Shown here piece after piece: positions 2,782 through 56,092 of a stretch of 64,000 bases of DNA (its first letter is position 1; each line of letters starts with the position of its first letter). The stretch lies in NCBI GenBank assembly GCA_028707125.1, contig JAQTUX010000001.1, positions 468,142 through 532,141 on the forward strand, given 5' to 3'. A program made the position numbers and the translations under genes. The notes beneath the pieces were generated by a model. It worked only from the letters and a program-made list of their open reading frames with translations. It did no database searches and had not been told where the DNA came from. This DNA comes from Candidatus Omnitrophota bacterium (lineage in GTDB: Bacteria > Omnitrophota > Gorgyraeia > Gygaellales > JAQTUX01).

Positions 2782-3557
2782 TGCAGGTTAAATTAAGAGA
2801 GGCCGGGCAGTGCACTTATTTCTACAACAACGGCCTTGCCCTGAAACTGGGCGATATAGTCATTGTGGAGCAGGACAGGGGGCTTGATTACGGCCATATC
2901 GCCTGCGACGCGCAGGTTGCCGCGGAGCCGGAGAACAAGGACAATATCAAGAAGGTCCTGCGCGTGGCAACGGCTGATGACATAGAGAAGATCGCCGATA
3001 ACCAGCTTCGGGCGGCCGAGGCGCGCAAGACCTGCGTAATAAAGATCGATCAGCACCGGCTTGATATGAAACTGGTTGACTGCGAATACGCCTTTGACCG
3101 CAGCAAGATAATCTTTTACTTCACCGCGGAGGAGAGGATAGATTTCCGGGAACTGGTCAAGGAGCTGGCAGGCATATTCAAGGTAAGGATAGAGTTGAGG
3201 CAGATAGGCGTCAGGGATGAGGCGCGGCTTTTAGGGGGGCTGGGCTCCTGCGGCAGGGAGCTTTGCTGCAAGACATTCCTCAAGGACTTTGTGCCGGTCA
3301 CGATAAGGATGGCAAAGGACGAAGGCCTGCCGCTGAATCCGCCCAAGATCTCCGGGCTATGCGGACGGCTGATGTGCTGCCTGGCCTATGAATATGATAC
3401 CTACAAGGAATTCAGCCGCGGCATGCCCAGGGAGGGCGATAAGATCAGCACTCCCGAAGGCAAGGGCAAGGTCGTCTCGGTCAACATACTTAAACGCAAG
3501 GCGTACGTTGAATTGGAAGAAGGAAAACAAATAATCATAGATTATACGAAGAAATAA
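2769..3557 (+). CDS. ricT: PSP1/RicT (YaaT) family regulatory protein
   Basis: PSP1 C-terminal domain pattern with Cys-rich LGSCGRELCCKTFL...GLCGRLMCC. Conserved tmk-holB-yaaT gene order. Confidence 0.65.
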   Translation: MQEIVQVKLREAGQCTYFYNNGLALKLGDIVIVEQDRGLDYGHIACDAQVAAEPENKDNIKKVLRVATADDIEKIADNQLRAAEARKTCVIKIDQHRLDMKLVDCEYAFDRSKIIFYFTAEERIDFRELVKELAGIFKVRIELRQIGVRDEARLLGGLGSCGRELCCKTFLKDFVPVTIRMAKDEGLPLNPPKISGLCGRLMCCLAYEYDTYKEFSRGMPREGDKISTPEGKGKVVSVNILKRKAYVELEEGKQIIIDYTKK

Positions 3558-5035: not shown

Positions 5036-5138
5036 AAGCGAAAAGCGCAAAGCGAAAAACGCAAAACTAAAACGTAAAGTTCAAAACGTTTTAAACTTTA
5101 AACTTTGGTTTTACGCTTTGCGCTTTACATTTTACGCT
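5036..5138. repeat. long imperfect palindromic intergenic element (copy 1); 3' 32 bp identical to the copy at 9959-9990
   Basis: aagcgaaaagcgcaaagcg...ggttttacgctttgcgctttacattttacgct; the two halves are reverse complements of each other. Confidence 0.6.
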
Positions 5139-5960
5139 ATGTTAACTGATACTCATTGCCACCTTGATTTCCCGGAATACGGCGAGGATCTGGAGCGGGT
5201 AATAGAGAACGCCAGGCAGGCGGGGATCGCCTTTATCGTGAATATCGGCTCCAGCTTGAAGTCCAGCCGGGAGGCAGTATCTCTGTCCGCGAAATACGAT
5301 TTTATTTATGCCGCGGTTGGCCTGCATCCTCACGAATGGAAAGGTTTCTCCGCCGCGGACATATCGGAGGTCAAGTCGTTAGCGGCAAATAAAAAGGTTG
5401 TGGCAATAGGCGAATGCGGGCTGGATTATCACAGGGCCCACGATAAGGAAAGGCAAAAACAGCTCTTTTCGGCGCATATAGATATAGCCAAAGAGAAGGG
5501 CCTGCCGCTGGTCATACACACCAGGGACGCGCACAATGATACGCTTGATATCTTAAGGCGCGCTTTCCCGGAGGGCGGTATCAGGGGGGTGGTGCATTGT
5601 TTTTCCGGCGACGAAAAGGTGCTTTCTGAGTGCCTTGAGCTGGGGCTGGACATATCCTTCACCTGCAATATAACATATCCCGCTAAGGGCTTTAATACCC
5701 GGCGGGATCCCGCCGATAATATACTTCAGCGGGACAAGAAGGCGGAGGATTTAAGAAAACTGGTCGGCATGATTCCGCTTGAACGGCTCTTGCTTGAAAC
5801 CGACGCGCCGTTCCTGCCGCCGCAGGAGTTAAGGGGCAGGCGTAATGAGCCGGCGTATGTGAAATACCTGGCTGACGCGATAGCGGAGATCAAGGGAATA
5901 AGTTTTGACGAGGTATCGCGCCAGACCGAAGCCAACGCCAGAAGGTTGTTTGGAATATGA
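5139..5960 (+). CDS. tatD: TatD family metal-dependent DNase/hydrolase
   Basis: MLTDTHCHLDF start motif and conserved His/Glu/Asp metal ligands (GLHPHE, ECGLDYH, VIHTRDA, VVHCFSG, ETDAPF). Start placed at the internal Met of the ORF beginning at 5118. Confidence 0.85.
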   Translation: MLTDTHCHLDFPEYGEDLERVIENARQAGIAFIVNIGSSLKSSREAVSLSAKYDFIYAAVGLHPHEWKGFSAADISEVKSLAANKKVVAIGECGLDYHRAHDKERQKQLFSAHIDIAKEKGLPLVIHTRDAHNDTLDILRRAFPEGGIRGVVHCFSGDEKVLSECLELGLDISFTCNITYPAKGFNTRRDPADNILQRDKKAEDLRKLVGMIPLERLLLETDAPFLPPQELRGRRNEPAYVKYLADAIAEIKGISFDEVSRQTEANARRLFGI

Positions 5961-7081
5961 GATCCAGAGTGTCCATAGTCAGGTGCGGCAGTTACGACAG
6001 GGAAGCGGTGCGGCAGGCGGTAGATGACGCCGTCGGCCTGCTCGGCGGCATAACCGCCTTTGTCAAGCCCGGCCGCAAAGTGCTGGTCAAGCCAAACCTG
6101 CTTATGGCGCAGGGCCCGGAAATACCGGTATGCACGCATCCGGAATTCATAAGGGCGGTGGTAAGGATGTTGAAGGCGATCAATGCAGAGGTGCTTATCG
6201 GCGACGGCCCCAGCGTCTGGGGAGGCCGCTCGGAAAATGTGGATGAGGTCTATGATGTCTGCGGCATCAGAGAGATAGCGCGGGATGAGGGCTGCGGTAT
6301 CGTCTATTTTGACAAGCATTCCTGGTTTGGCAAGATACCCCTGGCCGCGGTCCTTAATGAGGTGGACTGCGTGGTGTCTTTGCCCAAACTTAAGACGCAC
6401 AATTTTACGGTGCTTACCGCCGGGGTAAAAAATCTTTTCGGCCTGGTCAGCAGCAGTTTTAAACTCAAGTTCCATAGAGACTTTTTTGACGCGGAGCATT
6501 TTTCCTCCGTGCTGGTTGACATCTACGAAAAGGTAAGGCCGGCGCTGACTATAATTGACGCGGTAACCGCTATGCAGGGAGATGGTCCTGGCCCCAGCGG
6601 CACCGCGAAGCAGCTAGGTTTAGCGCTGGCTTCGCGTGATGCCGTGGCGCTTGACAGCGTGGCCTCTACGATCATGGGACTGCACCCGGAAAATGTGCCT
6701 ACGAACAGGATCGCAGAAAAAAGGCAGTTGGGTAATATAAAAAAAGACAGCATAGAATTATTAGGCGAAGATTTAAGCGAGATAAATGTAGGGCATTTCC
6801 AGCAGGCAGGCGCCTCTATCATATTGAGGATCCCCGCCCCCTTAGCCGCGGTCATCAAAAGGTTCCTTAAGGCCTGGCCGCTTGTGCTGAGCAGGGAATG
6901 CAGGAGATGCCGCAAATGCGCAGCTGCCTGCCCTGAAGGGGCGATATCATTCAACGAAAATAAAGACAGAATAGAGATAGATTACGGCAAATGCATCAGT
7001 TGTTTCTGCTGCCAGGAGACCTGTCCGTATGCCGCGATCGCCACGAGGAAGAGTTTGCTGGCCAGATTGATCGGCTTGTAA
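5957..7081 (+). CDS. DUF362-family protein with C-terminal 2x[4Fe-4S] ferredoxin domain
   Basis: C-terminal CRRCRKCAAACP and CISCFCCQETCPYAAI cluster motifs. N-terminal region resembles DUF362. Confidence 0.55.
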   Translation: MRSRVSIVRCGSYDREAVRQAVDDAVGLLGGITAFVKPGRKVLVKPNLLMAQGPEIPVCTHPEFIRAVVRMLKAINAEVLIGDGPSVWGGRSENVDEVYDVCGIREIARDEGCGIVYFDKHSWFGKIPLAAVLNEVDCVVSLPKLKTHNFTVLTAGVKNLFGLVSSSFKLKFHRDFFDAEHFSSVLVDIYEKVRPALTIIDAVTAMQGDGPGPSGTAKQLGLALASRDAVALDSVASTIMGLHPENVPTNRIAEKRQLGNIKKDSIELLGEDLSEINVGHFQQAGASIILRIPAPLAAVIKRFLKAWPLVLSRECRRCRKCAAACPEGAISFNENKDRIEIDYGKCISCFCCQETCPYAAIATRKSLLARLIGL

Positions 7082-7097
7082 GTACGCTCGCGCGTCT

Positions 7098-7922
7098 TTG
7101 AGCAAAGGGAAGCGTAGAATGAAGAAAATATTTATAATCCTGGTAATAGCATCATTGATATTATCAGGGTGGACAATAAAAAGAGATACAATAAGCAGGG
7201 GCATGTTGTCCCATAGAATAGGGCTTATTTATCACGCTATACCTAGAGTAATACAGAGCGAAACGGGATCTCTCGGTTTAGATAATATTAAGCAATATAT
7301 TTATAGAAATGTCCACCGTTACGGGAATATCCGTGATGACGGCCCTGGATGGATGCTGATCTACGGAGAGGCCTGGTGCGACTCGGTGGCGAATATATAT
7401 ATTCGGTTGGCGGAGGCGCTTGATATAAGAGGATATTTGATTTTTTTAGGAAACGGCAGCCATTCAGTCGCGTATGTTACTCCGGGGCATACGGCCTTGG
7501 AGAATATAGATTATCTTCAAGAAAATGCCATTGTTGTCGATCTGGAGGCAGGCATTATATATAAATGTAAACCAAGGGATATCTGCGGTGTTGATAAGAG
7601 ATATTGTAAGAAGCCCGCGATTTTTTTGATCAATCAGCCGATTTCGGAATATCGGCCTTTCAAAACATGGTTCTATAAAAAAGTATTCCCTCGCATTCCG
7701 GTAACCTGGCTTAAGAAATATATCCAGATCGCCTTGATCTGCAGAAGGTTTGAACGGGGCGAAAGAGAATACTATCTTGCCAGGGTCCACCAGTTGTTTT
7801 TTGACTATGATGCGGCCGCTAGAGGTTATCAGGGGGTAATTAAGAGGCATCCCGCCACGCGTTGGGCTGACCTGGCGGGATATTGGGCGGAACAGATATC
7901 CCTGCGATCGGACCAGAGTTGA
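7098..7922 (+). CDS. hypothetical exported/membrane-anchored protein, possible transglutaminase-like cysteine protease fold
   Basis: N-terminal TM helix. GEAWCDSV...HSVAYV...D spacing is reminiscent of a Cys-His-Asp transglutaminase-like core; this is a weak call. Confidence 0.3.
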   Translation: MSKGKRRMKKIFIILVIASLILSGWTIKRDTISRGMLSHRIGLIYHAIPRVIQSETGSLGLDNIKQYIYRNVHRYGNIRDDGPGWMLIYGEAWCDSVANIYIRLAEALDIRGYLIFLGNGSHSVAYVTPGHTALENIDYLQENAIVVDLEAGIIYKCKPRDICGVDKRYCKKPAIFLINQPISEYRPFKTWFYKKVFPRIPVTWLKKYIQIALICRRFERGEREYYLARVHQLFFDYDAAARGYQGVIKRHPATRWADLAGYWAEQISLRSDQS

Positions 7923-7934
7923 TTTGGAGATAAT

Positions 7935-8975
7935 ATGCCTTTGGCTACTATTGCCTGGAGTAAAGGAAATATAAAGATAATTGACCAGACCAAACTGCCG
8001 CTAAAACTGGAATATATCTATTGCCGCGATATAAATGCGTTGTGGAAGGCGATAAAGTTATTGAAAGTGAGGGGCGCGCCGGCGCTGGGAGCGGCAGCAG
8101 GGTTGGGCGTGTATCTGGGGATCAAGGGTTTTAAGGGCAAGGATATAAACGTATTCAGGCAGCGTCTTAATAAGGTCATTTCCTATCTTGGCTCAAGCCG
8201 GCCTACCGCGGTGAACCTTTTCTGGGGCTTAAACCGCATGCGCTCCGCGTTTGAGGCGAACAAACGCCTTGCCGCGGGAGAAATAAAAAAGGCGCTGTTC
8301 CGCGAGGCAATGGACATAATGGAAGAAGACAGGCGGATATGCAGAAAGATGGGCGCCTACGGAGCGCGCTTGATAAAAAACGGCGACTCTGTGCTTACGG
8401 TCTGCAACGCCGGAAGCTTAGCCACGGTTGATTACGGCACAGCCCTCGGCGTGCTTTACAGCGCCAAAGAGCGGGGCAGGCGCTTTAAGGTCTATTCCTG
8501 CGAGACGCGGCCGCTGCTTCAGGGCGCGCGGCTTACTGCCTGGGAACTGAAGAAGAACAGGGTTGACGTTACGCTTATCTGCGATAATACGGCTGCAAGT
8601 TTGATGGATCAGGGAAAAATAAACAAAATCATTGCCGGAGCAGACAGGATCGCGGCAAATGGCGACGCCGCGAATAAAATAGGCACCTATATGCTGGCAG
8701 TGCTGGCCAAATTTCACAATATACCTTTCTATATAGCGGCGCCTGCCTCTACGTTTGACTTGAAGATCAAAAGCGGCAGGCAGATCCCCATTGAGCAGAG
8801 GGATGCCCGTGAGGTAACAGAGTTATTGCGTAAACGCGGCACAGCGCCGAGGGGCGTCAAGGTGTATAATCCGGCGTTTGACGTGACGCCCGCGGGGCTG
8901 ATCACCGCGATAATCACGGAGAAGGGGATCATAAATAAACCGAATACGGTGAAGATCAAGAGTTTGATCGGATGA
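7935..8975 (+). CDS. mtnA: S-methyl-5-thioribose-1-phosphate isomerase (eIF-2B alpha/beta/delta family)
   Basis: N-terminal WSKGNIKIIDQTKLP...RGAPALG, GSLAT and CDNTAA motifs characteristic of MtnA. Confidence 0.75.
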   Translation: MPLATIAWSKGNIKIIDQTKLPLKLEYIYCRDINALWKAIKLLKVRGAPALGAAAGLGVYLGIKGFKGKDINVFRQRLNKVISYLGSSRPTAVNLFWGLNRMRSAFEANKRLAAGEIKKALFREAMDIMEEDRRICRKMGAYGARLIKNGDSVLTVCNAGSLATVDYGTALGVLYSAKERGRRFKVYSCETRPLLQGARLTAWELKKNRVDVTLICDNTAASLMDQGKINKIIAGADRIAANGDAANKIGTYMLAVLAKFHNIPFYIAAPASTFDLKIKSGRQIPIEQRDAREVTELLRKRGTAPRGVKVYNPAFDVTPAGLITAIITEKGIINKPNTVKIKSLIG

Positions 8976-9871
8976 AGACGCTAAAAGACATCGGAGAATT
9001 CGCTCTGATAGACCGGCTCAGCCGCGGCATTAAAGCGCGCAGTCCCGTGGTAAAGGGCATTGGAGACGACTGCGCGGTGCTGGAGTATAGCGGAAGGGAT
9101 TATTTGCTTGCGGGCTCTGATATGATCGTGGAGGGGGTGCATTTTAAGCGTTCTGCCCCGCCGTTCTATATCGGCAGGAAGGCGCTCGCCGCCGCCTTAA
9201 GCGACATCGCGGCAATGGGGGGGGAACCGATAGCCGCGCTTATTTCCATAGGGCTGCCTGAAGGCCTGCCGCTTAGTTTTATGGACGGGATATACAGGGG
9301 CATCAGGGCGTTGGCGCGCGAATATAATGTCAACCTGATCGGCGGAGATACATCCGCCTCTTCAAAGATAGTCATTGATGCCGTTGTTTTAGGCAGGGTG
9401 GAGAAAAACCGCCTGGTTTTAAGGAGCGGGGCAAAGAAGGGGGATATTATTTTTGTCACGGGCGGATTGGGGGGTTCTATCAAGGGCAGGCATTTTACAT
9501 TTGAGCCAAAGATAAAAGAGGCGCGCTTTCTGGTGAAGAATTTCAGGGTCAACGCGATGATAGATATATCCGACGGCCTGCTTGGCGATCTGGGGCATAT
9601 TTTAAAACAGAGCAAGGCAGGCGCCGTGATCTTTGAGGAACTGATCCCCCTACGCAAGGCGGCCTCAGGCTTCAGGGAGGCGCTGATAATGGGAGAGGAC
9701 TACGAATTGCTTTTTACCACCCCTGTTTCCCAGGCGAGGAAGATAATAAAAATGACAGGCGGCAGATATCGGGAGATCGGGGAGGTCCTGGACAGGGAAC
9801 GCGGCTTTACGCTGGTCACCAAAGATTGCAGGCAGGTGAGATTGAAAGCAGAGGGATTTAGGCATTTTTAA
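8972..9871 (+). CDS. thiL: thiamine-monophosphate kinase
   Basis: AIR-synthase-related fold with IGEFALIDRL...GIGDDCAVL N-terminus and GGDTS motif. Confidence 0.75.
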   Translation: MKTLKDIGEFALIDRLSRGIKARSPVVKGIGDDCAVLEYSGRDYLLAGSDMIVEGVHFKRSAPPFYIGRKALAAALSDIAAMGGEPIAALISIGLPEGLPLSFMDGIYRGIRALAREYNVNLIGGDTSASSKIVIDAVVLGRVEKNRLVLRSGAKKGDIIFVTGGLGGSIKGRHFTFEPKIKEARFLVKNFRVNAMIDISDGLLGDLGHILKQSKAGAVIFEELIPLRKAASGFREALIMGEDYELLFTTPVSQARKIIKMTGGRYREIGEVLDRERGFTLVTKDCRQVRLKAEGFRHF

Positions 9872-9990
9872 AGCGTAGAGCGTAAAACGAAAAGCGCAAA
9901 ACTAAAGTGCAAAACTTAAAACTTTAAAACAAGAAAACTTTAAACTTTAAGTTTTGGTTTTACGCTTTGCGCTTTACATTTTACGCTAAC
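9872..9990. repeat. long imperfect palindromic intergenic element (copy 2)
   Basis: agcgtagagcgtaaaacgaaaagcgcaaaac...ggttttacgctttgcgctttacattttacgct; same family as 5036-5138. Confidence 0.6.
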
Positions 9991-11049: not shown

Positions 11050-12161
11050 AGAAAGAATTCTTCCGTCCCACAATAGCCGAGATAGACCTGGGCGCGCTGG
11101 AATATAATTTCCGGCAGATAAAGCGCAGGGTCTCGTCGCATACAAAGATACTGGTGACGGTCAAGGCAGACGCCTACGGACACGGCATACTGCGGGTTTC
11201 CAAGCGGCTGGTACGCTGCGGCGTGGATTATTTAGGCGTTGCTTCTCTTGATGAGGCCGTATGTTTGAGAAGGGCAGGGGTGAAATGCCCAATACTTGTC
11301 CTGGGCGTGATCTTCCCCGAACAGGCCGGGACGGTCATCGATCACGATCTGACGCAGACCGTCTGCACCCTTGATGTCTGCCGCGCCCTGGACCGGCTGG
11401 CGGCGCGCAGGCACAAACGGGTCTCTGTCCACGTAAAGATAGACACAGGTATGGGCCGGCTGGGTGTCAGCTGGGGCGACGCCGAAGAATTCATCAGCGC
11501 CCTGTATAAGCAGATGAAGCACGTTTCCATAGAGGGCATCTTTACCCATTTTCCCCGCGCCGATGATAATAAAGCCCTTACCGGACGGCAGATAAGCATG
11601 TTCAGCGCCCTGGTGCGCCGGCTTGAGAAGAAGGGCATATTCATCCTGTTCAAGCACTGCGCCAACAGTATGGCTGTGCTGGATTATCCCGGAAGCCATT
11701 TTAATCTTATAAGGCCGGGACTGATCATTTACGGCCTGTATCCCAAAGACGGCTTAGACATACGGCTGAAACCGGCGATGGGACTGAAGTCAAAGATAGT
11801 TTTTATGAAATCAGTGAAAAAAGGCACGCCGTTAAGCTACGGCCATACCTATATAACCTCTAAAGATACCTCAGTAGCAGTTGTCCCCATTGGTTACGGC
11901 GACGGCTATTCCCGCGGCCTATCCAATAAGGCCCAGGTTTTGATCAAGGGCAGGCGTTTTCCTGTTGTGGGCACTATCTGCATGGACCAGATCCTGGTTG
12001 ATACAGGCAGGTTAAAGGCAAAGGTGGGAGATGAAGTTGTCTTGATCGGCCGTCAGGGAAAACAGGCAATTACCGCTGAAGAGATCGCCCGCCTCACGCG
12101 CACCATCCCTTATGAAGTCGTCTGCCAGGTAGGCAGGCGCGTCCCGCGGATATACAGGTAA
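11031..12161 (+). CDS. alr: alanine racemase
   Basis: PLP-lysine motif VTVKADAYGHGI and C-terminal beta-domain. Its 3' 70 nt are duplicated at 21792-21872. Confidence 0.9.
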   Translation: MPDQEMKKEFFRPTIAEIDLGALEYNFRQIKRRVSSHTKILVTVKADAYGHGILRVSKRLVRCGVDYLGVASLDEAVCLRRAGVKCPILVLGVIFPEQAGTVIDHDLTQTVCTLDVCRALDRLAARRHKRVSVHVKIDTGMGRLGVSWGDAEEFISALYKQMKHVSIEGIFTHFPRADDNKALTGRQISMFSALVRRLEKKGIFILFKHCANSMAVLDYPGSHFNLIRPGLIIYGLYPKDGLDIRLKPAMGLKSKIVFMKSVKKGTPLSYGHTYITSKDTSVAVVPIGYGDGYSRGLSNKAQVLIKGRRFPVVGTICMDQILVDTGRLKAKVGDEVVLIGRQGKQAITAEEIARLTRTIPYEVVCQVGRRVPRIYR

Positions 12162-12168
12162 TATTTAC
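12088..12168 (+). repeat. left copy of the 81-bp direct repeat (alr 3' end plus 9 nt); right copy at 21792-21872
   Basis: 61 nt are identical (cccgcctcacgcg...gtcccgcg), followed by 20 nt with 4 mismatches. Confidence 0.8.
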
Positions 12169-12244
12169 TTGACAAGATGTATTCTATGTAGTATTGTGAT
12201 TTTGTAATAACTATAAGTAAATCAAATAGTTACATTCCAGATAA

Positions 12245-15200
12245 GTGTCGTTCACGAACAAATTACCTATCCTGATTTTAAAGAAAATAACCCAAACAGG
12301 GATACTCTGCGTATCCCTGTTTTTGTTTTATCTGCCATTTGCATTTGCAGACATATCTGCATCAGCCAATGTCGGTCTGACGTTAAACAGCGTTAGAGGC
12401 CGCACTATCATGGCAGGCGCCCGGCCGATTTCATTCACGTTGCGAGTTCAATACAACGGCACAAATCAACTGACTTTTGGCGCAGAAGGATTGCGGGGAA
12501 ATGCCACTTTAGACGCCCAGACAGGCAGGTTCTACTGGATGCCAGAGGAAACTGATGTAGGAACACACCCTATCACTTTCCGGGTAACAGATGGTGTAGA
12601 AACCGACCAAAAGACAGTCACATACACTATTCTGCATAACTCTACTCCTTACACGGGCTCAGTCAGTCCCGATGATGAGATAGTCCGCTCCAATGAACAG
12701 TTGGAGTTTATTGCTACTTATTTTGACAACGCCGGCTGGCAGGACATACAGGATGTGTATATGTCTATCGGAGGGGCTTACTTCAGGTATAACCTACCTG
12801 AAAATAAGCTATATGCCTCAAGTAACTTTTCCCAATGGAATGGCGGTTATACCCCAGGCACAGCACAGATCATACAGGTAGACTTGGACGAATGGCAGGC
12901 AAGACTGGATTGTTCCAAAGTTAATATAAATGGTTCAGGTAAGGCATTAGAAATTAAATGGCCCATTCTATTTATAAATAAGACGAGGCACAATATAAGA
13001 AAGAACGTCTCTTTGTATGCTAAAGATAGAAACAACCTTGATTCCGGCTGGAGGGAGTCAGGGGAGATTAAAATTAGAGGATTAAAAGGCCGCATCCTTA
13101 CCTTTGGTCAGACCATAATAGATACTATTTCTAAAGAAAACTTTACTGTGACCTACACCTTTAGCGCCTCTAAAGACGACTACATCTACATGGCATTTGC
13201 CAAGACAGAAGGAAGTGACTTCCAGCCCTACCTTCAGTTATTTGATCCAAGCGGCAGCCATATTGCTTACGTATACGATACCACAGCCAACGCGCTCGGC
13301 ACGACACTAACCGCAACAGGCAGATATGTGTTAACCGTCTCAGACCACAACGGCGAAAATACCGGCAGCTACGCTTTGACCCTTCAGCGCTTTAATAACC
13401 CGGGCCAGGCATCTGCCCTAACTGCAGGCCAGACCCAATCCGCCTCCATATCAGCCCCCTCTGAAATAGACGCCTACAGCTTTACAGCGGCCTCAGCCGA
13501 CACCTTGATCATAAACCTGGTCAAGACATCAGGAGAGTTTAGGCCCTACATAGGAGTATATGACGATAAGGGCAAGCTGCTTAAAAAAGTTGATACCTCT
13601 TCTTCAGTCACCTTAAGTATGCCGCTTGCTCGGGCAGGGGTTTACTACATCTATGTGAGGGACTCCTATAACTATGAGACAGGAAGCTACAGTATAGCCC
13701 TGCAGGGCGCCAGCAATCCTGAACTTATCCAGCTCTCCTTCGGCCCTACAGTAACAGGCGCTATCTCTGCTGCAAGCCCGACAGTCACCTACACCTTTAG
13801 CGCCTCTAAAGACGACTACATCTACATGGCATTTGCCAAGACAGAAGGAAGTGACTTCCAGCCCTACCTTCAGTTATTTGATCCAAGCGGCAGCCATATT
13901 GCTTACGTATACGATACCACAGCCAACGCGCTCGGCACGACACTAACCGCAACAGGCAGATATGTGTTAACCGTCTCAGACCACAACGGCGAAAATACCG
14001 GCAGCTACGCTTTGACCCTTCAGCGCTTTAATAACCCGGGCCAGGCATCTGCCCTAACTGCAGGCCAGACCCAATCCGCCTCCATATCAGCCCCCTCTGA
14101 AATAGACGCCTACAGCTTTACAGCGGCCTCAGCCGACACCTTGATCATAAACCTGGTCAAGACATCAGGCCAGTTTACGCCTCGTCTGACAGTATATGAC
14201 AGTAAGGGCAAGCGGCTTGAGAGCGCTAATATCTTTTCAGATACCTTAAGCGCCTCACTTCCTCAGGCAGGCGTCTACCACATCTATGTAGTGGACTCCT
14301 ATAACTATGAGACAGGAAGTTATGACATAAGCCTGCAGAGCGCCAGTAATCCCGATGGCGCTGTAGACATTGCTTTCGGTGAGACAGTAACGGGTGAGAT
14401 TTCTTCTCCTATGGATACGGATGTATATGGCTTTACCGTAAATGAAGGTGATAATTTATACGCGGATATACGTTTTCCCAAAGTCAGCGGCAATAGTTAT
14501 TTCTCTCCATATGTGCGGCTGTATGATAGGTCAGGCAATATGATTGCCGATTCTACCTCGGGTATGCTTCTTCACTCTTTGCCTTCCGCAGGAACTTATT
14601 ATATTTTTGTCTCCGACAATTATATGGATGCCACAGGCAGCTATCAACTTACTCTGTCCAATGAGACCCCTGATATAGATAATCTTTCAGTTACGCCCAA
14701 TCCTTTTTCTCCGGACGAAAGCGGCACCTGGGTAGATCTGGATACAGGGGAAATATTCAACGACCCGGGGCCTAACCGCGTTCTGGACGATGTAGCCAAT
14801 ATTTCTTTTACCGCCTCTATGCAGGGATTTTTTGATATCAAGATTATTGATAGTAACAGCCAGCTGGTCAGGCAGCTTGTTTATGACGTATTAACTCCGG
14901 ATCACCGGACTAATTTGATACGAGTGCAGTGGAATGGCCGCAGCCAGAATAGTGATTTAGTTCCAAACGGCGCGTATACGCTGATAGTAAACTCCGGAAA
15001 TGTTGACAGGTGTCTGACCGCGACAATTAATGTAAACAAAATTGTTTTTATCACTATTGCCAGAATAACGCCAAATCCTTTTTCTCCTGACCGTGACGGT
15101 GTAGACGAAACAACCACCCTTTCTTACAGTTTATCTGAGAATTCCTATGTCAGCGTAGAGATTTATAACCAGCAAAATACTCTATTAAGAAAGTTAGCAG

Positions 15201-16279
15201 ACAATCAACTCCTTAGCTACGGCAGCCATAGCCATATCTGGGACGGTAAAGATAGTCAGGGTGCATACCTTCCTGAAGGCAGATACACTGTGAAGATAAG
15301 CGCTAAGGCAGAGGATGGAAAAGACGCAGCTCCTGTTTACCTGAATGTTGCCATACTGTTTATTTCTGATATCCGTATTTCTACGGACGAGATTAATCCT
15401 TACGCAGGAGAGGCCGTAACCATATCTTATAGAATGTCACATGAAGGCGTTTTAAATATTAAAATTTATAATAATAAAAATGCATTGGTAAGGAATCTTA
15501 TTCTAAACCAGCCCCGCCAGTCAGGCACATACTCAGAGGTTTGGGATGGCAAAGATAATGCCGGCAGGATTGTGCTTGACGGCGCCTACTATTTTATCAT
15601 AGAGGACAGCAAGGGTGGCGCTGTCTATGATCCTCGCGGCACAGGCGGGAAAGATATCTCCGGCAGCATCCGCCTGTCGGCATCTGATTTTAATCTGCTT
15701 CTTAATCAATTCTGTGTTATAGATTATACTCTGCCCCAGGCAGCAAAGATTAATCTTAAGGTCCGCTATGATAGATATTCAGGCCCGGCTGTCAGGGTGT
15801 TGAAATATCAAGAGCCGGTTTCTTCAGGCGCGCACCAGACGCTCTGGGACGGCAGGGATGAGACAGGAGATTTTGTTGACCGTACTGATTTTACCTTTGC
15901 CATCTGGGGATATACATTGGATGAGAATTCCATTTTGGTTGTGGGAGATAGACCTGTAATTAGCAATCCGGCTATTATCCCGGTCCGTTTTAGCCCTTAT
16001 GATAATCCTTATAGCACAGGTGTTTCAGAAGGCACAATCTCCTTTAATCTATCCAGAGATGCCAATGTTACGATAAATATTTATGATTCTGAAGGTAATC
16101 TGGCGCGCAATCTGCTGAATAATCAGCCCTGCGCGCAGGGCAGCAATTCTTTTATCTGGAACGGCAGAAATAACGAAGGTAATTTTGCGTCTGAAGGGTT
16201 TTATCGGGTAGCAATTCAGGCGGAAAAAGACGGCAATTATTCGGAAGGTTATACCTTGCATACGGAGATTTTCTATTGA
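12245..16279 (+). CDS. giant secreted surface protein with tandem PPC (pre-peptidase C-terminal) domains followed by ~5 FlgD-Ig-like domains
   Basis: Signal peptide. Repeated ...DAYSFTA...AGVYYIYV.DSYNYETGSY motifs (PPC-like). Repeated NPFSPD..G......L.Y.L.....V.V.IY....L.R.L...Q..G.H...WDG motifs (FlgD-Ig-like). GTG start. Confidence 0.6.
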   Translation: MSFTNKLPILILKKITQTGILCVSLFLFYLPFAFADISASANVGLTLNSVRGRTIMAGARPISFTLRVQYNGTNQLTFGAEGLRGNATLDAQTGRFYWMPEETDVGTHPITFRVTDGVETDQKTVTYTILHNSTPYTGSVSPDDEIVRSNEQLEFIATYFDNAGWQDIQDVYMSIGGAYFRYNLPENKLYASSNFSQWNGGYTPGTAQIIQVDLDEWQARLDCSKVNINGSGKALEIKWPILFINKTRHNIRKNVSLYAKDRNNLDSGWRESGEIKIRGLKGRILTFGQTIIDTISKENFTVTYTFSASKDDYIYMAFAKTEGSDFQPYLQLFDPSGSHIAYVYDTTANALGTTLTATGRYVLTVSDHNGENTGSYALTLQRFNNPGQASALTAGQTQSASISAPSEIDAYSFTAASADTLIINLVKTSGEFRPYIGVYDDKGKLLKKVDTSSSVTLSMPLARAGVYYIYVRDSYNYETGSYSIALQGASNPELIQLSFGPTVTGAISAASPTVTYTFSASKDDYIYMAFAKTEGSDFQPYLQLFDPSGSHIAYVYDTTANALGTTLTATGRYVLTVSDHNGENTGSYALTLQRFNNPGQASALTAGQTQSASISAPSEIDAYSFTAASADTLIINLVKTSGQFTPRLTVYDSKGKRLESANIFSDTLSASLPQAGVYHIYVVDSYNYETGSYDISLQSASNPDGAVDIAFGETVTGEISSPMDTDVYGFTVNEGDNLYADIRFPKVSGNSYFSPYVRLYDRSGNMIADSTSGMLLHSLPSAGTYYIFVSDNYMDATGSYQLTLSNETPDIDNLSVTPNPFSPDESGTWVDLDTGEIFNDPGPNRVLDDVANISFTASMQGFFDIKIIDSNSQLVRQLVYDVLTPDHRTNLIRVQWNGRSQNSDLVPNGAYTLIVNSGNVDRCLTATINVNKIVFITIARITPNPFSPDRDGVDETTTLSYSLSENSYVSVEIYNQQNTLLRKLADNQLLSYGSHSHIWDGKDSQGAYLPEGRYTVKISAKAEDGKDAAPVYLNVAILFISDIRISTDEINPYAGEAVTISYRMSHEGVLNIKIYNNKNALVRNLILNQPRQSGTYSEVWDGKDNAGRIVLDGAYYFIIEDSKGGAVYDPRGTGGKDISGSIRLSASDFNLLLNQFCVIDYTLPQAAKINLKVRYDRYSGPAVRVLKYQEPVSSGAHQTLWDGRDETGDFVDRTDFTFAIWGYTLDENSILVVGDRPVISNPAIIPVRFSPYDNPYSTGVSEGTISFNLSRDANVTINIYDSEGNLARNLLNNQPCAQGSNSFIWNGRNNEGNFASEGFYRVAIQAEKDGNYSEGYTLHTEIFY
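13148..14169 (+). repeat. intragenic tandem duplication, 636-bp period; 386 bp are 100% identical between units (13148-13533 vs 13784-14169)
   Basis: Exact DNA identity, giving an identical 128-aa peptide TVTYTFSASKDDYIYMAF...LVKTSG. The adjacent halves of each unit are only ~60-70% identical. Confidence 0.9.
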
Positions 16280-16285
16280 TATGGG

Positions 16286-16717
16286 GTGGACGGGATGAAA
16301 AAAACGAGTATGTATATTCTGTTTTTCATAGCCGCATTCTCTTTTAATCTTTTAGCAAAAGAGGCGTATCAAAACCAGTTGATTTTGGAATTAAACTTTC
16401 CAAAAGAAAGCACTGCTAAAATGGAGGCGCCGCGACCAAAGGCAGAGGCCCTGTCCATTTCCGGCGAAATCCTTGTTAACATCAGCCCTGTTCCTGAGAA
16501 AATAGAACAGGACAGGTATTTGGTGGAGTATTTCTTAGATGAGCAGTTAATATATCGAACCACCGGTTTTGACAGGCGCACTTTTGCCTGTATTCTGGAT
16601 ACTGCCCAATATGAAAACGGCACGCATAAGCTGATCATTAATTTCTGGGATAAATCCGGCCCTTCAGCCATCGGCATAAGAGAGCTTATCATTAACAACG
16701 AGGAAACAAATGAATAA
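16286..16717 (+). CDS. hypothetical secreted protein
   Basis: Signal peptide MYILFFIAAFSFNLLA and no recognisable motif. Lies immediately upstream of rhs with a 4-nt overlap. Confidence 0.3.
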   Translation: MDGMKKTSMYILFFIAAFSFNLLAKEAYQNQLILELNFPKESTAKMEAPRPKAEALSISGEILVNISPVPEKIEQDRYLVEYFLDEQLIYRTTGFDRRTFACILDTAQYENGTHKLIINFWDKSGPSAIGIRELIINNEETNE

Positions 16718-19700
16718 CCGCCTCCTGAAGATCCTCTCGGTATTCACGCTTTTCTTCTTTGTTTCCAATATCTTCATACCCCCTGTAGCCCTTGCCGAGC
16801 TTCCCTGCTGGAACGATGCCTCGCTTGCTTCCGGAGAGGGCGGGGTAGATGATGCAGCCACCGCAGGCGGCAAGCCCGCTGGCATAAACCAGAAGAACAG
16901 GACAGAGGCAGCAGATCCTGTTGATGTCTCAAACGGCAATTTCTTCTACCAGAACCAGGATTTATCCATCCCTTCACGAGGACTCTCCTTAGAGATAAAG
17001 CGCTTCTACAACAGTTTAGACACCTACGAAGGCCCCTTTGGCATAGGCACAAGCCACAGCTATAATATATTCTTGTTGGAGATTTCAGAAGCAAGCCAGA
17101 CATACGTTCTAAGGCGTAACGCCAACGGCTCAAAGGACAGATTCCTGCGGAATGCCGACGGTTCCCATACACCTTCAGCTGGCTGCTATGACACCTTAAC
17201 CAAAGACACAACCGGCTACCTGATACAGGACAAGTATGGCTTCATCTATCGCTTTGGTTTAGATGGTCGCCTTAACTCAATCACTGACCGAAACAACAAC
17301 ACAATCTCCTTAGAGTATGACTCACAATCATCTGTATTAAGCAGAGTCAGCGACAGCTTAAGCCGCTTTATTGAATTCGCTTATAACCCCCAGCGCAAGA
17401 TAAGCCAGGTAAGCGACTCTACCGGCCGCCTGATCTCATATGAATACGATTCAGACGGCAATCTAATCTATGTAACCACTCCTGCCACAGGGGATTATCC
17501 TTCAGGACTGACTACCACATACGCCTACGACGATAAGCACAGGTTAACCTCCATAACAAACGCCAGGGATAGGCGATATATATCCCTGGAGTATGATGAA
17601 AATAGCCGCGTAAAGGATCTTACCTATGGAGCAGGCGTATATCGCTTTAGCTATAAGAGCGCTCTTACAACCCTTATTGACCCCAGGGGCTTTACGACAG
17701 AATACGAGCTTAATACAGATGGCACAGTCCAGAGCCAGAAGCAATACGCCGGCAGCTCATCTTATCAAACCAGATACGAATACAACCAGAACCGCGAGCG
17801 CACCAGGATAACCTATCCTGAGGGCAACTGGGTTAAATACACCTATGATAATAAGGGCAGCATTCTGGAAATCAGGCGCAAGAAAGCCAACGCCTCTGAC
17901 AGTGATGACCCTGCAAATGACATAGTAGCTGCCTTTAGCTATGAGCCGCAGTTTAACTTCGTCAAGACCGCAACAGACCCTAAGGGCAACGTTACTACCT
18001 ATGATTATGACTCAAAAGGAAATCTCATCAAAATAATCTATCCGGCTGTTAACGGCGTAAAACCCGAAGTTAAATTCGCCTATAGTGCTTACGGCCCGCC
18101 AACCAGCGTAACAGACCCTAACGGTAATGTAACTACCTATGATTACGACCCTGATACTGGATACTTAGTCAAAACAACCGCTGCTCAAGGCGTTCTTAAC
18201 CTTATCACCCGGTTTACCTACGACACAACCGGTAACATCAAAACCGTAACCGACCCCAAAGGCAGCACCACGACATTTGAATACGACAGCCACAACAACC
18301 TGATTAAGACCACATCCGCTTCACCATTTAACTATGAGACCCTCTATAAATACGATGAGAACGATAACCTGATTGAGCTCCACAGACAGACCGGCGACCC
18401 TGATAATCCCTGGCAGACAACCTCCTACACCTATGATATCCTTGACCGGCTGGACTCTGTCAAAGACGCCATAGGCAATACCTCTAACTTTATCTATGAC
18501 TTAAACGGCAACCGCCGCTCGCTTGCAGATGCGGAAGGTAATACTACTACTTATGAATACGATGAACGCAATCTACTCTGGAGGGTAACCGACGCAGAGA
18601 ATAATGTTACAGAATACTCCTACGATACAAACGGCAACCTCAAGCAAATCACTGACGCAAAAGGCAATGCTACCGTCTACACCTACGACAGCTTTGATCG
18701 GCTCATCTCTACCACCTACGCTGACGACTCAATAGAGGAATACACCTATGACGCCAATTCCAACCTCATCACCAAAAAAGACCCCAAAGGCCAGGTCATC
18801 ACCTACGCCTATGACTCCATTAACCAGCTGGACTTAAAGACCTATCCTGATAAATCAAGCGTTGACTATGTTTATGACATCGGCTCCCGGCTTGTTGATG
18901 TCATTGACAAAATCGGCACCATACACTATGACTATGATGCGGCCAGCCGAATTACCAGCGTAACCTATCCCGGCAATAAATCCGTCTCTTACGAATACGA
19001 CGCCAATTCCAACCGCAGCAAGCTAACCTACCCCGATAATACCTATCTTACCTATATATATGATGAACTCAACCGCCTGACCAATGTAGTTGCCCCATTG
19101 ATGGGGCAAGGCAGTGCCGTCGCCTCCTACACCTATGACGCCCTCTCCAGACGCACCCGGCTTGACTACCTCAACAATACCTACTCGCTCTATGACTATG
19201 ACCCAGCCAGCCGCCTGACAACGCTTACCAATGTCTCTAACTCTATACCTAACCCCTACTCCTACACCTATGATAACGCGGGCAACAGGACGTCATTGCG
19301 AGGAGCCGAAGGCGACGAAGCAACCTACACCTATGACAAGACCTACCAGCTCACAGCCGTCAACTACCCTGACGGCTTTGCCTTCTTTGACACTGCCTAC
19401 GACTATGATGAGATAGGCAACCGCACGACAAACTACACCTCAAACTCCCTCAACCAATATACCAAGGCAGGTACAACCAACCTCGCCTACGACAGCAACG
19501 GCAACCTCACCAATGACGGCAGCTTCACCTACGCCTATGACTACGAGAACCGGCTGGTGAGCGCCTCGTCATTGCGAGGGAGCGAAGCGACCGAAGCAAT
19601 CTACGCCTACGACCCCTTCGGCAGGCGCACCTCAAAGTCATTGCGAGGAGCCGAAGGCGACGAAGCAATCTCCTACATCTACGATGGCGACCAGATCATC

Positions 19701-20468
19701 GCGGAATACGACGCAAGCAACAATCTCATCGCTAAATATATCTATGGTACGGGTATAGATGAACCCATTCTTATGCAAAGGGGGGAGAATGCTTATTACT
19801 ACCACTTTGACGGCCTGGGAAGCGTAGTAAACCTCACCGACTCTTCCGGCTCAAAGGTTGAAAGCTACACCTACGATGCCTACGGTAATCCCATTATCCA
19901 CGATCCATCATCCAATATCCTTCTTCAATCCTCCGTTGGTAATCGCTACATGTTCACAGGAAGAGAATATGATGATGAGACGGGGCTGTATTACTACAGG
20001 GCGAGGCATTATTCGCCGATGATTGGGAGATTCTTGCAGAGGGACTCTTGGCCAGGAATACCAGAAGATCCCGGTTCACTCGTTAATAAATATACCTACT
20101 GCTCCAACAATCCCATAAATTGGATAGATCCTTATGGGTGGGATAAACAGAAGAAGGATCAACCATGGTGGATTGTAGTTGGAGGTATTACAGTAGCTAC
20201 ACCTATTCAAGGGGATGAAGCAATCTTTTGGACAGGAGTAGGTATAGTTGCAATAGGTAGTTATGCTGTTCATCAGTTTAGTAAATATCACGCAAAAGGT
20301 CCGTTATGGAATGCTCCAGGTATGCCAGGGTGGAATTTAAGGCAATATGAAGAACGACAACCAGGAGCTTTCAAGCCACCGCCAAATTTTAAGAATTGGA
20401 AAGATAGAATTATATGGGCAGCTGGTTTACTCGCTAAATTATTTAATAATTTCAGAGGAGGCAGATGA
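16710..20468 (+). CDS. rhs: Sec-secreted Rhs/YD-repeat polymorphic toxin with variable C-terminal domain
   Basis: Signal peptide, dozens of YD repeats (xYxYDxxGNL) and the Rhs core ending ...YYYRARHYSPMIGRFLQRD...NNPINWIDPYGW. A ~120-aa divergent hydrophobic C-terminal domain follows, in visibly AT-rich DNA. Confidence 0.8.
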   Translation: MNNRLLKILSVFTLFFFVSNIFIPPVALAELPCWNDASLASGEGGVDDAATAGGKPAGINQKNRTEAADPVDVSNGNFFYQNQDLSIPSRGLSLEIKRFYNSLDTYEGPFGIGTSHSYNIFLLEISEASQTYVLRRNANGSKDRFLRNADGSHTPSAGCYDTLTKDTTGYLIQDKYGFIYRFGLDGRLNSITDRNNNTISLEYDSQSSVLSRVSDSLSRFIEFAYNPQRKISQVSDSTGRLISYEYDSDGNLIYVTTPATGDYPSGLTTTYAYDDKHRLTSITNARDRRYISLEYDENSRVKDLTYGAGVYRFSYKSALTTLIDPRGFTTEYELNTDGTVQSQKQYAGSSSYQTRYEYNQNRERTRITYPEGNWVKYTYDNKGSILEIRRKKANASDSDDPANDIVAAFSYEPQFNFVKTATDPKGNVTTYDYDSKGNLIKIIYPAVNGVKPEVKFAYSAYGPPTSVTDPNGNVTTYDYDPDTGYLVKTTAAQGVLNLITRFTYDTTGNIKTVTDPKGSTTTFEYDSHNNLIKTTSASPFNYETLYKYDENDNLIELHRQTGDPDNPWQTTSYTYDILDRLDSVKDAIGNTSNFIYDLNGNRRSLADAEGNTTTYEYDERNLLWRVTDAENNVTEYSYDTNGNLKQITDAKGNATVYTYDSFDRLISTTYADDSIEEYTYDANSNLITKKDPKGQVITYAYDSINQLDLKTYPDKSSVDYVYDIGSRLVDVIDKIGTIHYDYDAASRITSVTYPGNKSVSYEYDANSNRSKLTYPDNTYLTYIYDELNRLTNVVAPLMGQGSAVASYTYDALSRRTRLDYLNNTYSLYDYDPASRLTTLTNVSNSIPNPYSYTYDNAGNRTSLRGAEGDEATYTYDKTYQLTAVNYPDGFAFFDTAYDYDEIGNRTTNYTSNSLNQYTKAGTTNLAYDSNGNLTNDGSFTYAYDYENRLVSASSLRGSEATEAIYAYDPFGRRTSKSLRGAEGDEAISYIYDGDQIIAEYDASNNLIAKYIYGTGIDEPILMQRGENAYYYHFDGLGSVVNLTDSSGSKVESYTYDAYGNPIIHDPSSNILLQSSVGNRYMFTGREYDDETGLYYYRARHYSPMIGRFLQRDSWPGIPEDPGSLVNKYTYCSNNPINWIDPYGWDKQKKDQPWWIVVGGITVATPIQGDEAIFWTGVGIVAIGSYAVHQFSKYHAKGPLWNAPGMPGWNLRQYEERQPGAFKPPPNFKNWKDRIIWAAGLLAKLFNNFRGGR

Positions 20469-20962
20469 TAAAAAATAAATTACTTTTTCATATGATACCA
20501 ATAGAAGATAGAACTAATAAAGGTTATAAGAATTTAGTTGAAAATATTTTAAAACATGCTTTCTATTTTATTCCAGCAGAAGATTTGGAGGGAATAGAAA
20601 AAATAATACTTTTAGATGAATGCCAAGATCGAGAGTTTAAATGGGCGGGTGGATTTTATTATGCCTATGAAGAAAAGGATGCTATTATAGAACTGTATCC
20701 TCCAAAAATAATAGATGCAAAACCATTTTTTGTTCCAACATCAAAATTCTTTAATAGTTACTCAATCACTAAGATGTTTTTGCATGAATTGGGACACCAT
20801 AAATTCGGAAATGTGCAGGAACGAGAATTCAAAGCTCAAGAATACATGGTGTTATATATTAAGAAAATATATGGCAATTGGATTTATTTTTTTGATTTTT
20901 TAGCTAGACTAGATAATTTTTTACGTAAGTTTCTCAAAACCTTCAACAAAAAAGCAATGTAG
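20465..20962 (+). CDS. small protein downstream of the Rhs C-terminus: candidate immunity protein or HExxH zincin-like partner
   Basis: ATGA overlap with the rhs stop and GGAGG RBS. Contains HELGHH (HExxH) at residues ~107-112. AT-rich. Confidence 0.35.
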   Translation: MIKNKLLFHMIPIEDRTNKGYKNLVENILKHAFYFIPAEDLEGIEKIILLDECQDREFKWAGGFYYAYEEKDAIIELYPPKIIDAKPFFVPTSKFFNSYSITKMFLHELGHHKFGNVQEREFKAQEYMVLYIKKIYGNWIYFFDFLARLDNFLRKFLKTFNKKAM

Positions 20963-21022
20963 TATAACGAAAAAACGCCAACGAAGCTTTACATAACTAG
21001 CAATACATAATGGGCATAACGG

Positions 21023-21036
21023 GGACGGTTCTCTTT
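21023..21036 (+). repeat. REP-like motif GGGGACGGTTCTCT (copy upstream of RAYT)
   Basis: Same 13-14-mer occurs at 206-220 (+) and as the reverse complement at 21775-21790. Confidence 0.6.
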
Positions 21037-21157
21037 ATCATAACCTTAACTATCATAATCACTTACAACACCTACTTTATAAATTTTAAGATTTCTTGCA
21101 AGTAAACGCCTCATTTTTGCGTCTATTATAGTAGAAGGGCAGAAAGGGGGCGTTTTT

Positions 21158-21763
21158 ATGCCACGAGACAGAAGGCACATACCAGAGGCAGGTTTCCTGC
21201 ACGTTATATCCAGAGGCAACAACAGAAGGAAGATATTTCGGTATGAGAGAGATTTAGAGGCGTATTATTCAATTCTTCTTCAAAGCAAAGCAGAAGACAG
21301 AATCAACATCTCTCATTATTGCCTGATGAGCAATCATATACACTTGATACTGGAGGTAAACGAAGCAAGCAACCTTTCCAGGTTCATGAAGCGGGTAAAC
21401 CTGAGGTACGTCTACTATTACAGAAGAAAGTATGCCTACTGCGGCCATCTCTGGCAGGACAGGTTCAAGGCAAAGACTATAGACAATGAGGAATACCTTA
21501 TTCAATGCGGCAAATACATAGAGCTGAATCCTGTTAGAGCGGGCATAGTCAAGAGACCTGAAGAATATCGGTTTTCCAGTTACCTCCACTATGCTTATGG
21601 AGCTGAGGATGTATTGATACAAGATAATCCTTTCTACTCTGAATTGGGAGAGAGCCAAGAGCGAAGGCAAACAATTTACAGAGATATGATTATAGAAGAG
21701 ATGATAGAGAAGGGCCTAAGACAGGAAAAAATAATTGAGCACTCAGAACTTATTGCGGTATAA
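21158..21763 (+). CDS. REP-associated tyrosine transposase (RAYT) / IS200-like Y1 HUH transposase
   Basis: HUH motif SNHIHLILEV and catalytic Tyr region YYYRRKYAYCGHLWQDRF, with N-terminal HVISRGNNRRKIF. Flanked by inverted GGGGACGGTTCTC motifs. Confidence 0.75.
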   Translation: MPRDRRHIPEAGFLHVISRGNNRRKIFRYERDLEAYYSILLQSKAEDRINISHYCLMSNHIHLILEVNEASNLSRFMKRVNLRYVYYYRRKYAYCGHLWQDRFKAKTIDNEEYLIQCGKYIELNPVRAGIVKRPEEYRFSSYLHYAYGAEDVLIQDNPFYSELGESQERRQTIYRDMIIEEMIEKGLRQEKIIEHSELIAV

Positions 21764-21774
21764 TAGATAACAGC

Positions 21775-21790
21775 AAGGAGAACCGTCCCC
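21775..21790 (-). repeat. REP-like motif (inverted copy downstream of RAYT)
   Basis: aggagaaccgtcccccc is the reverse complement of GGGGACGGTTCTCCT. Confidence 0.6.
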
Positions 21791-21791
21791 C

Positions 21792-21872
21792 CCCGCCTCA
21801 CGCGCACCATCCCTTATGAAGTCGTCTGCCAGGTAGGCAGGCGCGTCCCGCGCGTATACAAATAATATTTAC
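21792..21872 (+). repeat. right copy of the alr 3'-end direct repeat (degenerate C-terminal coding fragment ...RLTRTIPYEVVCQVGRRVPRVYK*)
   Basis: 61/61 nt identical to 12088-12148, then 16/20 identical. Its stop abuts the convergent lptF/G stop. Confidence 0.8.
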
Positions 21873-36700: not shown

Positions 36701-36702
36701 AC

Positions 36703-40815: not shown

Positions 40816-40907
40816 GAAGCAGTGAGGAGGGAGTTTCCCGACCATCGTGTCACATAGGTCGGGATCCCGCCGAGTTACTATATAGCAGCGGGAGAACCCG
40901 AAAATAG

Positions 40908-56082: not shown

Positions 56083-56092
56083 CTGGATAAAT

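Follow-up and report, generated by a model that had tools for sequence, protein, structure and literature searches.

The window, by which we mean the entire 64-kb stretch of DNA that was analyzed, contains a gene for a secreted multidomain protein, and this gene, hereafter the host gene, carries a long, exactly repeated tract within its coding sequence. The host gene comes first in an insertion of 9,704 bp that has sharp edges and is bracketed by 81-nt direct repeats, the two copies of which match at 77 of 81 positions. In order, the insertion comprises the PPC/FlgD-Ig host gene, an ORF of approximately 140 aa that has no assignment, the Rhs toxin gene, a second ORF of this kind (165 aa), and an IS200/RAYT-like transposase gene. 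The GC content of the insertion is 0.35-0.49, versus 0.50-0.56 for its flanks. The features that define the locus are as follows.

12088..12168, + strand: left 81-nt direct repeat, with which the intact alr gene ends (3' end) and which marks the left edge of the island; 4 differences from the right copy
12245..16279, + strand: host gene, GTG start; its secreted multidomain product has 1344 aa (ORF list, translation, and Pfam)
16710..20468, + strand: Rhs/YD-repeat toxin gene with DUF6531, 14 RHS repeats, an Rhs-associated core (aa 1055-1143), and a tail of approximately 110 aa that is unassigned (Pfam and NCBIfam)
21158..21763, + strand: IS200-like/REP-associated tyrosine-transposase-like gene, located at the island's right end (PF01797, E = 3.9e-18)
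21792..21872, + strand: right 81-nt direct repeat, the ancestral alr 3' end, orphaned beside the lptG stop codon

Two Logan contigs, L129 and L130, encode an LptG protein that is exactly that of the flanking gene. Contig L129 (SRR22315508) matches the window at 100% identity and ends inside the 81-nt repeat. Contig L130 (SRR22315506) is 99.5% identical to the window over lptG and joins lptG straight to alr, and its site is thus empty; it has one 81-nt copy, which is identical to the right copy of the window. We assign the right copy as the ancestral end of alr because of this identity. Since the site is empty in L130, the cassette varies between strains. The flanking direct repeats, in which the 3' end of alr is present twice, and the empty site of this close relative identify it as an integrated genomic island. 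Among the island ORFs scanned, neither a tyrosine nor a serine integrase was found, and the only gene of this kind is that for the IS200/RAYT-like Y1 transposase, which scores 76.7 bits against NF047646 (cut-off, 80).

Domain organization of the host protein

Starting from the GTG codon, the host product begins with a signal-peptide-like N-terminus. A He_PIG Ig domain occupies aa 60-129, aa 130-280 are unassigned, five PPC-like domains span aa 281-815, and the C-terminal part (aa 816-1344) is an array of FlgD_ig/CHU_C-like Ig domains, as judged by Pfam matches and the translation. The original prediction had described a "giant adhesin", a term that the data do not bear out, as the protein has only 1344 aa and its role in adhesion is at most putative. 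The same sequence is deposited at NCBI as MDD4909481.1, where it is annotated from Met99, a residue that lies inside the He_PIG domain; the public start codon is wrong. Profile scans of the protein revealed no surface anchor or sorting signal beyond weak Por_Secre_tail/CHU_C similarities. The parts of the protein that are relevant to the repeats are listed here.

12245..12349, + strand: Sec signal peptide (MSFTNKLPILILKKITQTGILCVSLFLFYLPFAFA/D), predicted from the translation by eye
13085..13402, + strand: domain D1, first of unit A (aa 281-386); predicted PPC-like beta sandwich, no Pfam match
13403..13720, + strand: domain D2, second of unit A (aa 387-492); PPC domain, PF04151 at 26.6 bits and by model
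13721..14038, + strand: domain D3, first of unit B (aa 493-598); 87% identical to D1, no Pfam match
14039..14353, + strand: domain D4, second of unit B (aa 599-703); PPC domain, PF04151 at 27.8 bits; 78% identical to D2
14354..14689, + strand: domain D5, an unpaired PPC-like domain (aa 704-815); PF04151 at a sub-threshold 19.6 bits, E = 0.0018
14690..16276, + strand: C-terminal FlgD_ig/CHU_C-like Ig array (Pfam FlgD_ig, E = 2.4e-42), which lacks homogenised repeats

The bit scores given above come from scanning D1 to D5 separately against Pfam, in which PF04151 has a gathering score of 25.9 bits. The repeat unit of 636 nt encodes two PPC-like beta sandwiches of approximately 106 aa each. The two domains of a pair differ considerably in sequence, with D1 being 32% identical to D2, and D5 is 38-42% identical to D1 to D4. 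The earlier description of the array as 636-bp PPC-domain repeats has to be amended in that a unit holds two domains and not one and in that only D2 and D4 reach the PPC threshold of Pfam.

Unit A (aa 281-492) was modelled with AlphaFold2 from a 10-row alignment of two-domain units, the rows of which were taken from the host protein and from its distant homologues P0002 and P0003. The model is confident (pLDDT 91.3, pTM 0.86) and predicts two eight-stranded beta sandwiches, and it is by this predicted fold only that D1 and D3 are PPC-like. The collagen-binding domains of ColG are the archetype of the PPC fold. When the unit A model was compared to the PDB using Foldseek, the top match was to the tandem collagen-binding domains of ColG (5iku, E = 2.6e-13). 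The host unit thus resembles ColG s3a-s3b and the PPC family PF04151 in that this is its best structural match, with a weak profile match as well (E = 0.0032), and in that D2 and D4 score above the gathering score. It differs from ColG in that the sequence identity is 18%, the host protein has no protease domain, and D1 and D3 have no Pfam match. We do not expect binding of calcium or collagen to matter in this organism.

The identical tract and its diverged flanks

The repeat itself consists of two copies of one tract and the sequence that separates them.

13151..13533, + strand: copy 1 of the homogenised tract, 383 nt (aa 303-430); it starts at strand 2 of D1, includes the linker, and reaches the conserved KTSG motif of D2
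13534..13786, + strand: diverged spacer of 253 nt between the tract copies; its counterpart is at 14170-14419
13787..14169, + strand: copy 2 of the homogenised tract, with the same letters as copy 1, which runs from strand 2 of D3 to the KTSG motif of D4

The offset between the tract copies within the ORF at 12245-16279 is 636 nt, or 212 codons, and it is therefore in frame. At this offset, the longest exact run is that of 13151-13533 with 13787-14169, 383 of 383 nt. The original prediction had reported a core of 386 bp that is 100% identical; when 13148-13533 is aligned with 13784-14169, 385 of the 386 bases are the same, so the observation is confirmed and the exact length is corrected to 383 nt. 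The sole mismatch in this range is a synonymous G/C difference at 13150/13786, and a second synonymous difference occurs three bases upstream of it at 13147/13783. The borders of the tract are sharp and fall at 13150/13151 and at 13533/13534. The identical share of each 636-nt unit is thus 60%, with the spacer at 13534-13786 being made up of the C-terminal two thirds of D2 and the N-terminal 21 aa of D3.

A repeat search of the window recovered the tract pair at a spacing of 636 and, downstream, two copies spaced by 633 that are 78% identical. No other long exact repeats exist within the 64-kb window, and the second-longest exact repeat in the host ORF is 27 nt. Tandem Repeats Finder did not report the 636-nt array because its period exceeds the 500-nt limit of the program.

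The position of the tract with respect to the protein fold is informative. In the unit A model, the tract corresponds to residues 23-150, beginning at strand 2 of the first domain, crossing the linker, and ending just past the invariant T-S-G of the second domain. Since the tract both begins and ends inside domains, its placement fits a process that acts on DNA rather than selection that acts on domains.

Outside the tract, the two units have diverged strongly. In 60-nt windows at the 636-nt offset, ungapped identity is approximately 0.5 just upstream of the tract, rises to 0.97-1.0 within it, and falls to approximately 0.5 and then to 0.3 downstream. The 60 nt on the 5' side of the tract are likewise approximately 50% identical between units. 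On the 3' side, a codon alignment of 61 codons (13535-13720 versus 14171-14353) that allows a one-codon (3-nt) indel and compares 183 nt yields 73% identity for DNA and 62% for protein, and third positions are 70% identical. The next 20 codons (60 nt) are 53% identical at the DNA level and 40% identical at the protein level. By the method of Nei and Gojobori, the downstream flank has a pS of 0.387, a dS of 0.54, and a dN of 0.28.

The contrast between tract and flank is too great to be accidental. At the level of identity found in the flank, the chance of 383 straight matches is 0.73^383, or 4.5e-53, and chance cannot be the source of the exact tract. The codon-aligned region 13148-13534 contains no non-synonymous differences and two synonymous differences in approximately 93 synonymous sites, and both of these lie outside the exact run, within the three codons that precede it. 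At the flank's pS of 0.387, the tract should have accumulated approximately 36 synonymous differences, and the exact run has none. Selection at the protein level is not the cause of the identity because synonymous sites are identical too. The locus presents near-identity with sharp borders amid diverged paralogues, synonymous sites included.

The match at synonymous sites is also the sole reason for considering that a DNA or RNA element embedded in the coding sequence, such as an sRNA, a binding array, or the template repeat of a diversity-generating retroelement (DGR), keeps the copies identical through constraint on the nucleotides themselves; nothing else speaks for it. The predicted RNA fold of the tract equals that of shuffled sequences (z = 0.17) and a scan of the window places no Rfam family at the tract, results on which we reject an embedded RNA element. 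The antisense ORFs are just 48 aa, and the 383 nt are not conserved elsewhere in the protein and metagenome contig searches. We regard such a constraint as scarcely credible. A diversity-generating retroelement was rejected on further grounds. The copies are identical, unlike a VR/TR pair with its adenine mutations, and the differences in the flank (A>G, 9; G>A, 9; C>T, 8; T>C, 8) are symmetric transitions that are not adenine-specific. No reverse transcriptase was found among the neighboring genes that were scanned.

The identity could also have been produced by assembly or polishing, if the copies truly differ or the true array has more than two units; the contig would then show a collapsed or minimally traversed loop, or a consensus homogenised by mis-mapped short reads. 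An exact repeat of 383 nt at a distance of 253 nt outspans the usual k-mers and short reads, so that repeat number is not fixable from them; the only public copy of the gene is on one MAG contig; and short-read polishing might erase a few real differences between copies. A de Bruijn assembler, however, does not create identity from sequences that are 73% identical, and the reads of copies so diverged would not cross-map during polishing. Moreover, the source contig is 1.26 Mb in length, 4157 nt nearby are matched at 100% by an independent Logan assembly, and the identity of the tract would still stand if too few units had been counted. For these reasons, we consider an artefact to be unlikely.

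Proposed origin of the tract

Given these observations, the history that we favor, and that we consider probable from the sequence, is an old tandem duplication followed by a very recent homogenisation of the units through homologous recombination. An old tandem duplication would have produced two adjacent 636-nt units, each with a pair of PPC-like domains, and the units would then have drifted apart to approximately 73% nucleotide identity. Very recently, homologous recombination would have overwritten at least 383 nt of one unit with the sequence of the other, either as a non-reciprocal patch of gene conversion or through an expansion and a subsequent contraction, that is, through two unequal crossovers at different points. 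A conversion patch and a gain followed by a loss would leave the same mosaic, and the present sequence cannot separate them. Recent recombination between adjacent repeats is nevertheless the only simple route to 0 differences in 383 nt beside a flank with a dS of approximately 0.54. The sequence shows the exact tract with its sharp borders, the old flanks, the two-domain unit, and the disagreement between the borders of the tract and those of the domains, whereas the recombination mechanism, the identity of the donor copy, and any variation in length that results are matters of inference.

The timing of the proposed event can be bounded. Zero differences in 383 nt give a 95% upper bound on tract divergence of approximately 0.8%, and the Jukes-Cantor distance of the flank is approximately 0.33. 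Therefore, the event would fall in roughly the last 2-3% of the separate history of the units. The original prediction spoke of a recent internal duplication, and here it must be revised: with a flank dS of approximately 0.54 the duplication is old, and it is only the 383-nt patch that is recent. Its proposal of gene conversion or unequal crossing-over agrees with the data as far as recent recombination is concerned, given the absence of differences in the tract versus the flank. A single unequal crossover, however, does not account for the pattern. A single duplication or crossover duplicates the full 636 nt, of which only 383 are identical, and two exchange points are therefore needed. At the 5' border, the tract begins where a poorly conserved N-terminal strand (approximately 50% identity) gives way to conserved sequence, and a heteroduplex could plausibly not have extended into the region of approximately 50% identity.

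The same mosaic would result from events in the reverse order, with a recent duplication of the whole 636-nt unit being followed by replacement of the 253-nt remainder from a diverged third paralogue or from imported DNA. A foreign donor is conceivable since the gene resides on a horizontally acquired island. This order of events requires two events, however, one of them with a donor that has not been seen: a third copy is absent from the 64-kb window, and D5 is too distant from the other four domains to represent one. A search of 5.8 billion proteins returned the host product itself and relatives of no more than 33% identity, and so offers no donor either.

A comparison for the usual state of such units comes from one of these distant relatives, P0002 (33% identity; locus L008 in a JGI metagenome), whose PPC array likewise repeats in steps of two domains, here of 627-630 nt. 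The units at L008 are 75-79% identical to one another, and their longest exact run is 43 nt. This indicates that an identity of approximately 75% is the normal, long-term state of two-domain units and that the 383-nt tract is exceptional, which supports old units with a recent patch and speaks against the reverse order. We therefore judge the reverse order to be quite improbable and retain the old duplication with recent homogenisation. Orthology of the host units with the alternating domain types of P0002 was also considered and set aside, as the identity matrix was indecisive; we claim only the shared two-domain period.

A second copy of the host gene, in which the tract could be compared between strains, was not found in any of the indexes that we searched, which covered proteins, genomes, metagenomes, and Logan. 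Exact-product look-ups gave no match for the full protein with either start or for the NCBI product. A scan of genome contigs for the host gene gave distant FlgD_ig matches only, and a scan of metagenome contigs gave no match. Likewise, the product of the 140-aa downstream ORF, the predicted product of a 5'-cut gene (14141-16276), the RAYT-like protein, and the alr product are absent from the Logan index. The literature searched contained nothing on the source runs or the protein accession.

The gene now holds perfect 383-nt direct repeats that are 253 nt apart, a long homology through which an in-frame module of 212 aa might be lost or gained. For RecA-dependent recombination, perfect direct repeats of 383 nt would be a much better substrate for deletion and duplication than are sequences that are 73% identical. 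The locus is thus a candidate for length variation in steps of 636 nt (212 aa), and assemblies may miscount its repeats. One could go further and suppose a domain-number switch, in which frequent in-frame gain and loss of modules tunes a secreted stalk that acts with the adjacent Rhs toxin; we think that this is distinctly unlikely. The associated proposal that the reach or the specificity of a stalk is tuned in this manner on a mobile island is equally doubtful. Omnitrophota are suspected of host- or prey-dependent lifestyles.

Relation to known systems

Homogenisation of this kind has well-known counterparts. Bacterial examples of gene conversion and concerted evolution include the tuf genes, the rRNA operons, Neisseria pilE/pilS, Borrelia vlsE, and Mycoplasma genitalium mgpB/C. 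As in these cases, the host tract is sharp-edged amid diverged paralogues and is independent of codon position and domain borders. Unlike the programmed systems, the host gene has no archive of silent cassettes and no signs of programmed or repeated switching. On its sequence, the tract looks like a single patch between two adjacent units that are both expressed.

Among surface proteins, the closest comparison is with the Periscope proteins and similar repeat surface proteins, which include SasG/Aap, Rib/alpha C, Esp, and Sgo_0707 (Whelan et al. 2021, PMC8201768). High DNA identity between the repeats of Periscope proteins has been proposed to permit intragenic recombination and the gain or loss of whole repeats (PMC8201768). 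Like these proteins, the host product is secreted and multidomain, with tandem folded beta-sandwich domains, and its perfect 383-nt repeat with an in-frame period of 636 nt is the same type of recombination substrate. Unlike them, it has two units of which 60% is identical, D5 and the FlgD_ig array are diverged, and the gene comes from an uncultured Omnitrophota bacterium and not from a pathogen. We would not class the host product as a Periscope protein, since its sequence holds no long array of DNA-identical domains. The locus may instead resemble a first step towards a Periscope-like system, or a one-off conversion.

The phenomenon itself is an ordinary one, namely the known concerted evolution of tandem domain repeats in secreted and surface proteins of bacteria. 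Since recombination between tandem repeats of surface proteins is well established, the tract alone opens no new question. It does provide a clean and datable example of concerted evolution inside a gene for a secreted protein from a poorly known phylum, and it flags a site at which repeat number may be mis-assembled or may differ between cells. Its practical value lies chiefly in annotation and in quality control of assemblies.

The context of the gene is the more useful observation: at alr lies an Rhs island of 9.7 kb that varies between strains, and a sister sample contains a strain in which the site is empty. The host gene resembles genes of Rhs/YD polymorphic-toxin islands in being directly upstream of the Rhs gene and within a strain-variable insertion. 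In P0002, the best of the distant homologues, the PPC array is fused directly to RHS repeats, and another Rhs gene adjoins; the PPC/FlgD-Ig protein of the window differs from this fusion in being encoded by a separate gene. Comparison of the two loci hints at a recurring association of PPC arrays with Rhs genes.

Insertion at the 3' end of alr

A region of low GC content, 9.7 kb in length, has been inserted where alr terminates. On it lie the PPC/FlgD-Ig gene and an Rhs toxin gene, together with a RAYT/IS200-like gene and two small ORFs that have no assignment. The insertion is bracketed by 81-nt direct repeats that match one another at 77 of 81 positions. No integrase was found on the 9.7-kb insertion.

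Features at the insertion
12088-21872: insertion
12088-12168 and 21792-21872: 81-nt direct repeats
12169-12197: promoter-like site, TTGACA-17-TATTGT

We observed the corresponding empty site in a 99.5%-identical strain (SRR22315506, contig L130), in which lptG directly adjoins alr and a single copy of the 81-nt repeat is present. This copy is identical to the right copy of the window. When alr of the window strain is compared to that of the empty-site strain, 20 differences are found over 645 nt (window 11443-12087), while lptG shows only 8 differences over approximately 1,500 nt, a divergence that is far below that of alr. The alr differences are concentrated in two places, 11450-11595 and the 70-nt stretch that adjoins the 81-nt repeat on its left. 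This suggests that a recombination tract accompanied gain or loss of the island.

The promoter-like site lies exactly at the island edge. The public annotation of the PPC/FlgD-Ig protein (MDD4909481.1, 1246 aa) places the start at Met99, within the He_PIG Ig domain. The upstream limit of the ORF is a GTG at 12245, and the additional N-terminus that this provides (window 12245-12539) is signal-peptide-like.

PPC arrays, Rhs genes and a 33-nt motif

A distant homologue of the PPC array is encoded by a JGI metagenome locus (L008; 3300032829, 2969-9704), where at least 8 PPC domains are fused C-terminally to RHS repeats. That gene is directly preceded by a further Rhs gene and an ORF of 159 aa. 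PPC arrays are therefore found together with Rhs toxins in two contigs that are unrelated to each other.

The Rhs ORF of the window (16710-20468) contains three in-frame copies of a motif of approximately 33 nt, GTCATTGCGAGGAGCCGAAGGCGACGAAGCAA(T/C)C, two of which are exact across 32 nt. The peptide encoded by the motif is SLRGAEGDEA.

Copies of the motif in the Rhs ORF
19292-19323, forward
19568-19600, forward
19637-19668, forward

These three forward half-arms are the only form in which the motif is present in the window. An exact 31-mer of the motif is found in at least 120 metagenome contigs (L009-L128) from soil, freshwater, marine and sediment samples, mostly outside of ORFs and mostly as inverted pairs 52-80 nt apart; the resulting hairpins span 65-100 nt, with minimum free energies of -32 to -68 kcal/mol. 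Neither RAYT nor Rhs homologues were found in the 716 kb of the 31-mer-bearing contigs listed. Rfam holds no family that matches the motif, and our literature search found no paper on it. The motif may be a REP/MITE-like element.

Other repeats and Rfam matches

Remaining features of the window
36342-36497 / 40667-40822: long inverted repeat, 156 nt, 98%
36580-36702 / 40389-40511: long inverted repeat, 123 nt, 96%
40596-40728: 61-nt tandem pair
5035-5139, 9870-9988: intergenic repeat, approximately 105 nt, 68-79% identity
24786-24844; 42542-42958; 56008-56166; 57533-57608: nhaA-I riboswitch-like motif, tmRNA and three tRNAs (Rfam)

The segment delimited by the long inverted repeats, which has the tandem pair at one end, could be invertible or transposable. 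Two ORFs lie in the approximately 4 kb between the repeats: one of 410 aa (+), which is unassigned, and one of 810 aa (-), which is TPR-like. The intergenic repeat, which contains tandem 14-mers (AAAGCGAAAAACGC), lies 3' of two different operon-internal genes. The nhaA-I riboswitch-like motif is positioned upstream of ORF 24846-25943.
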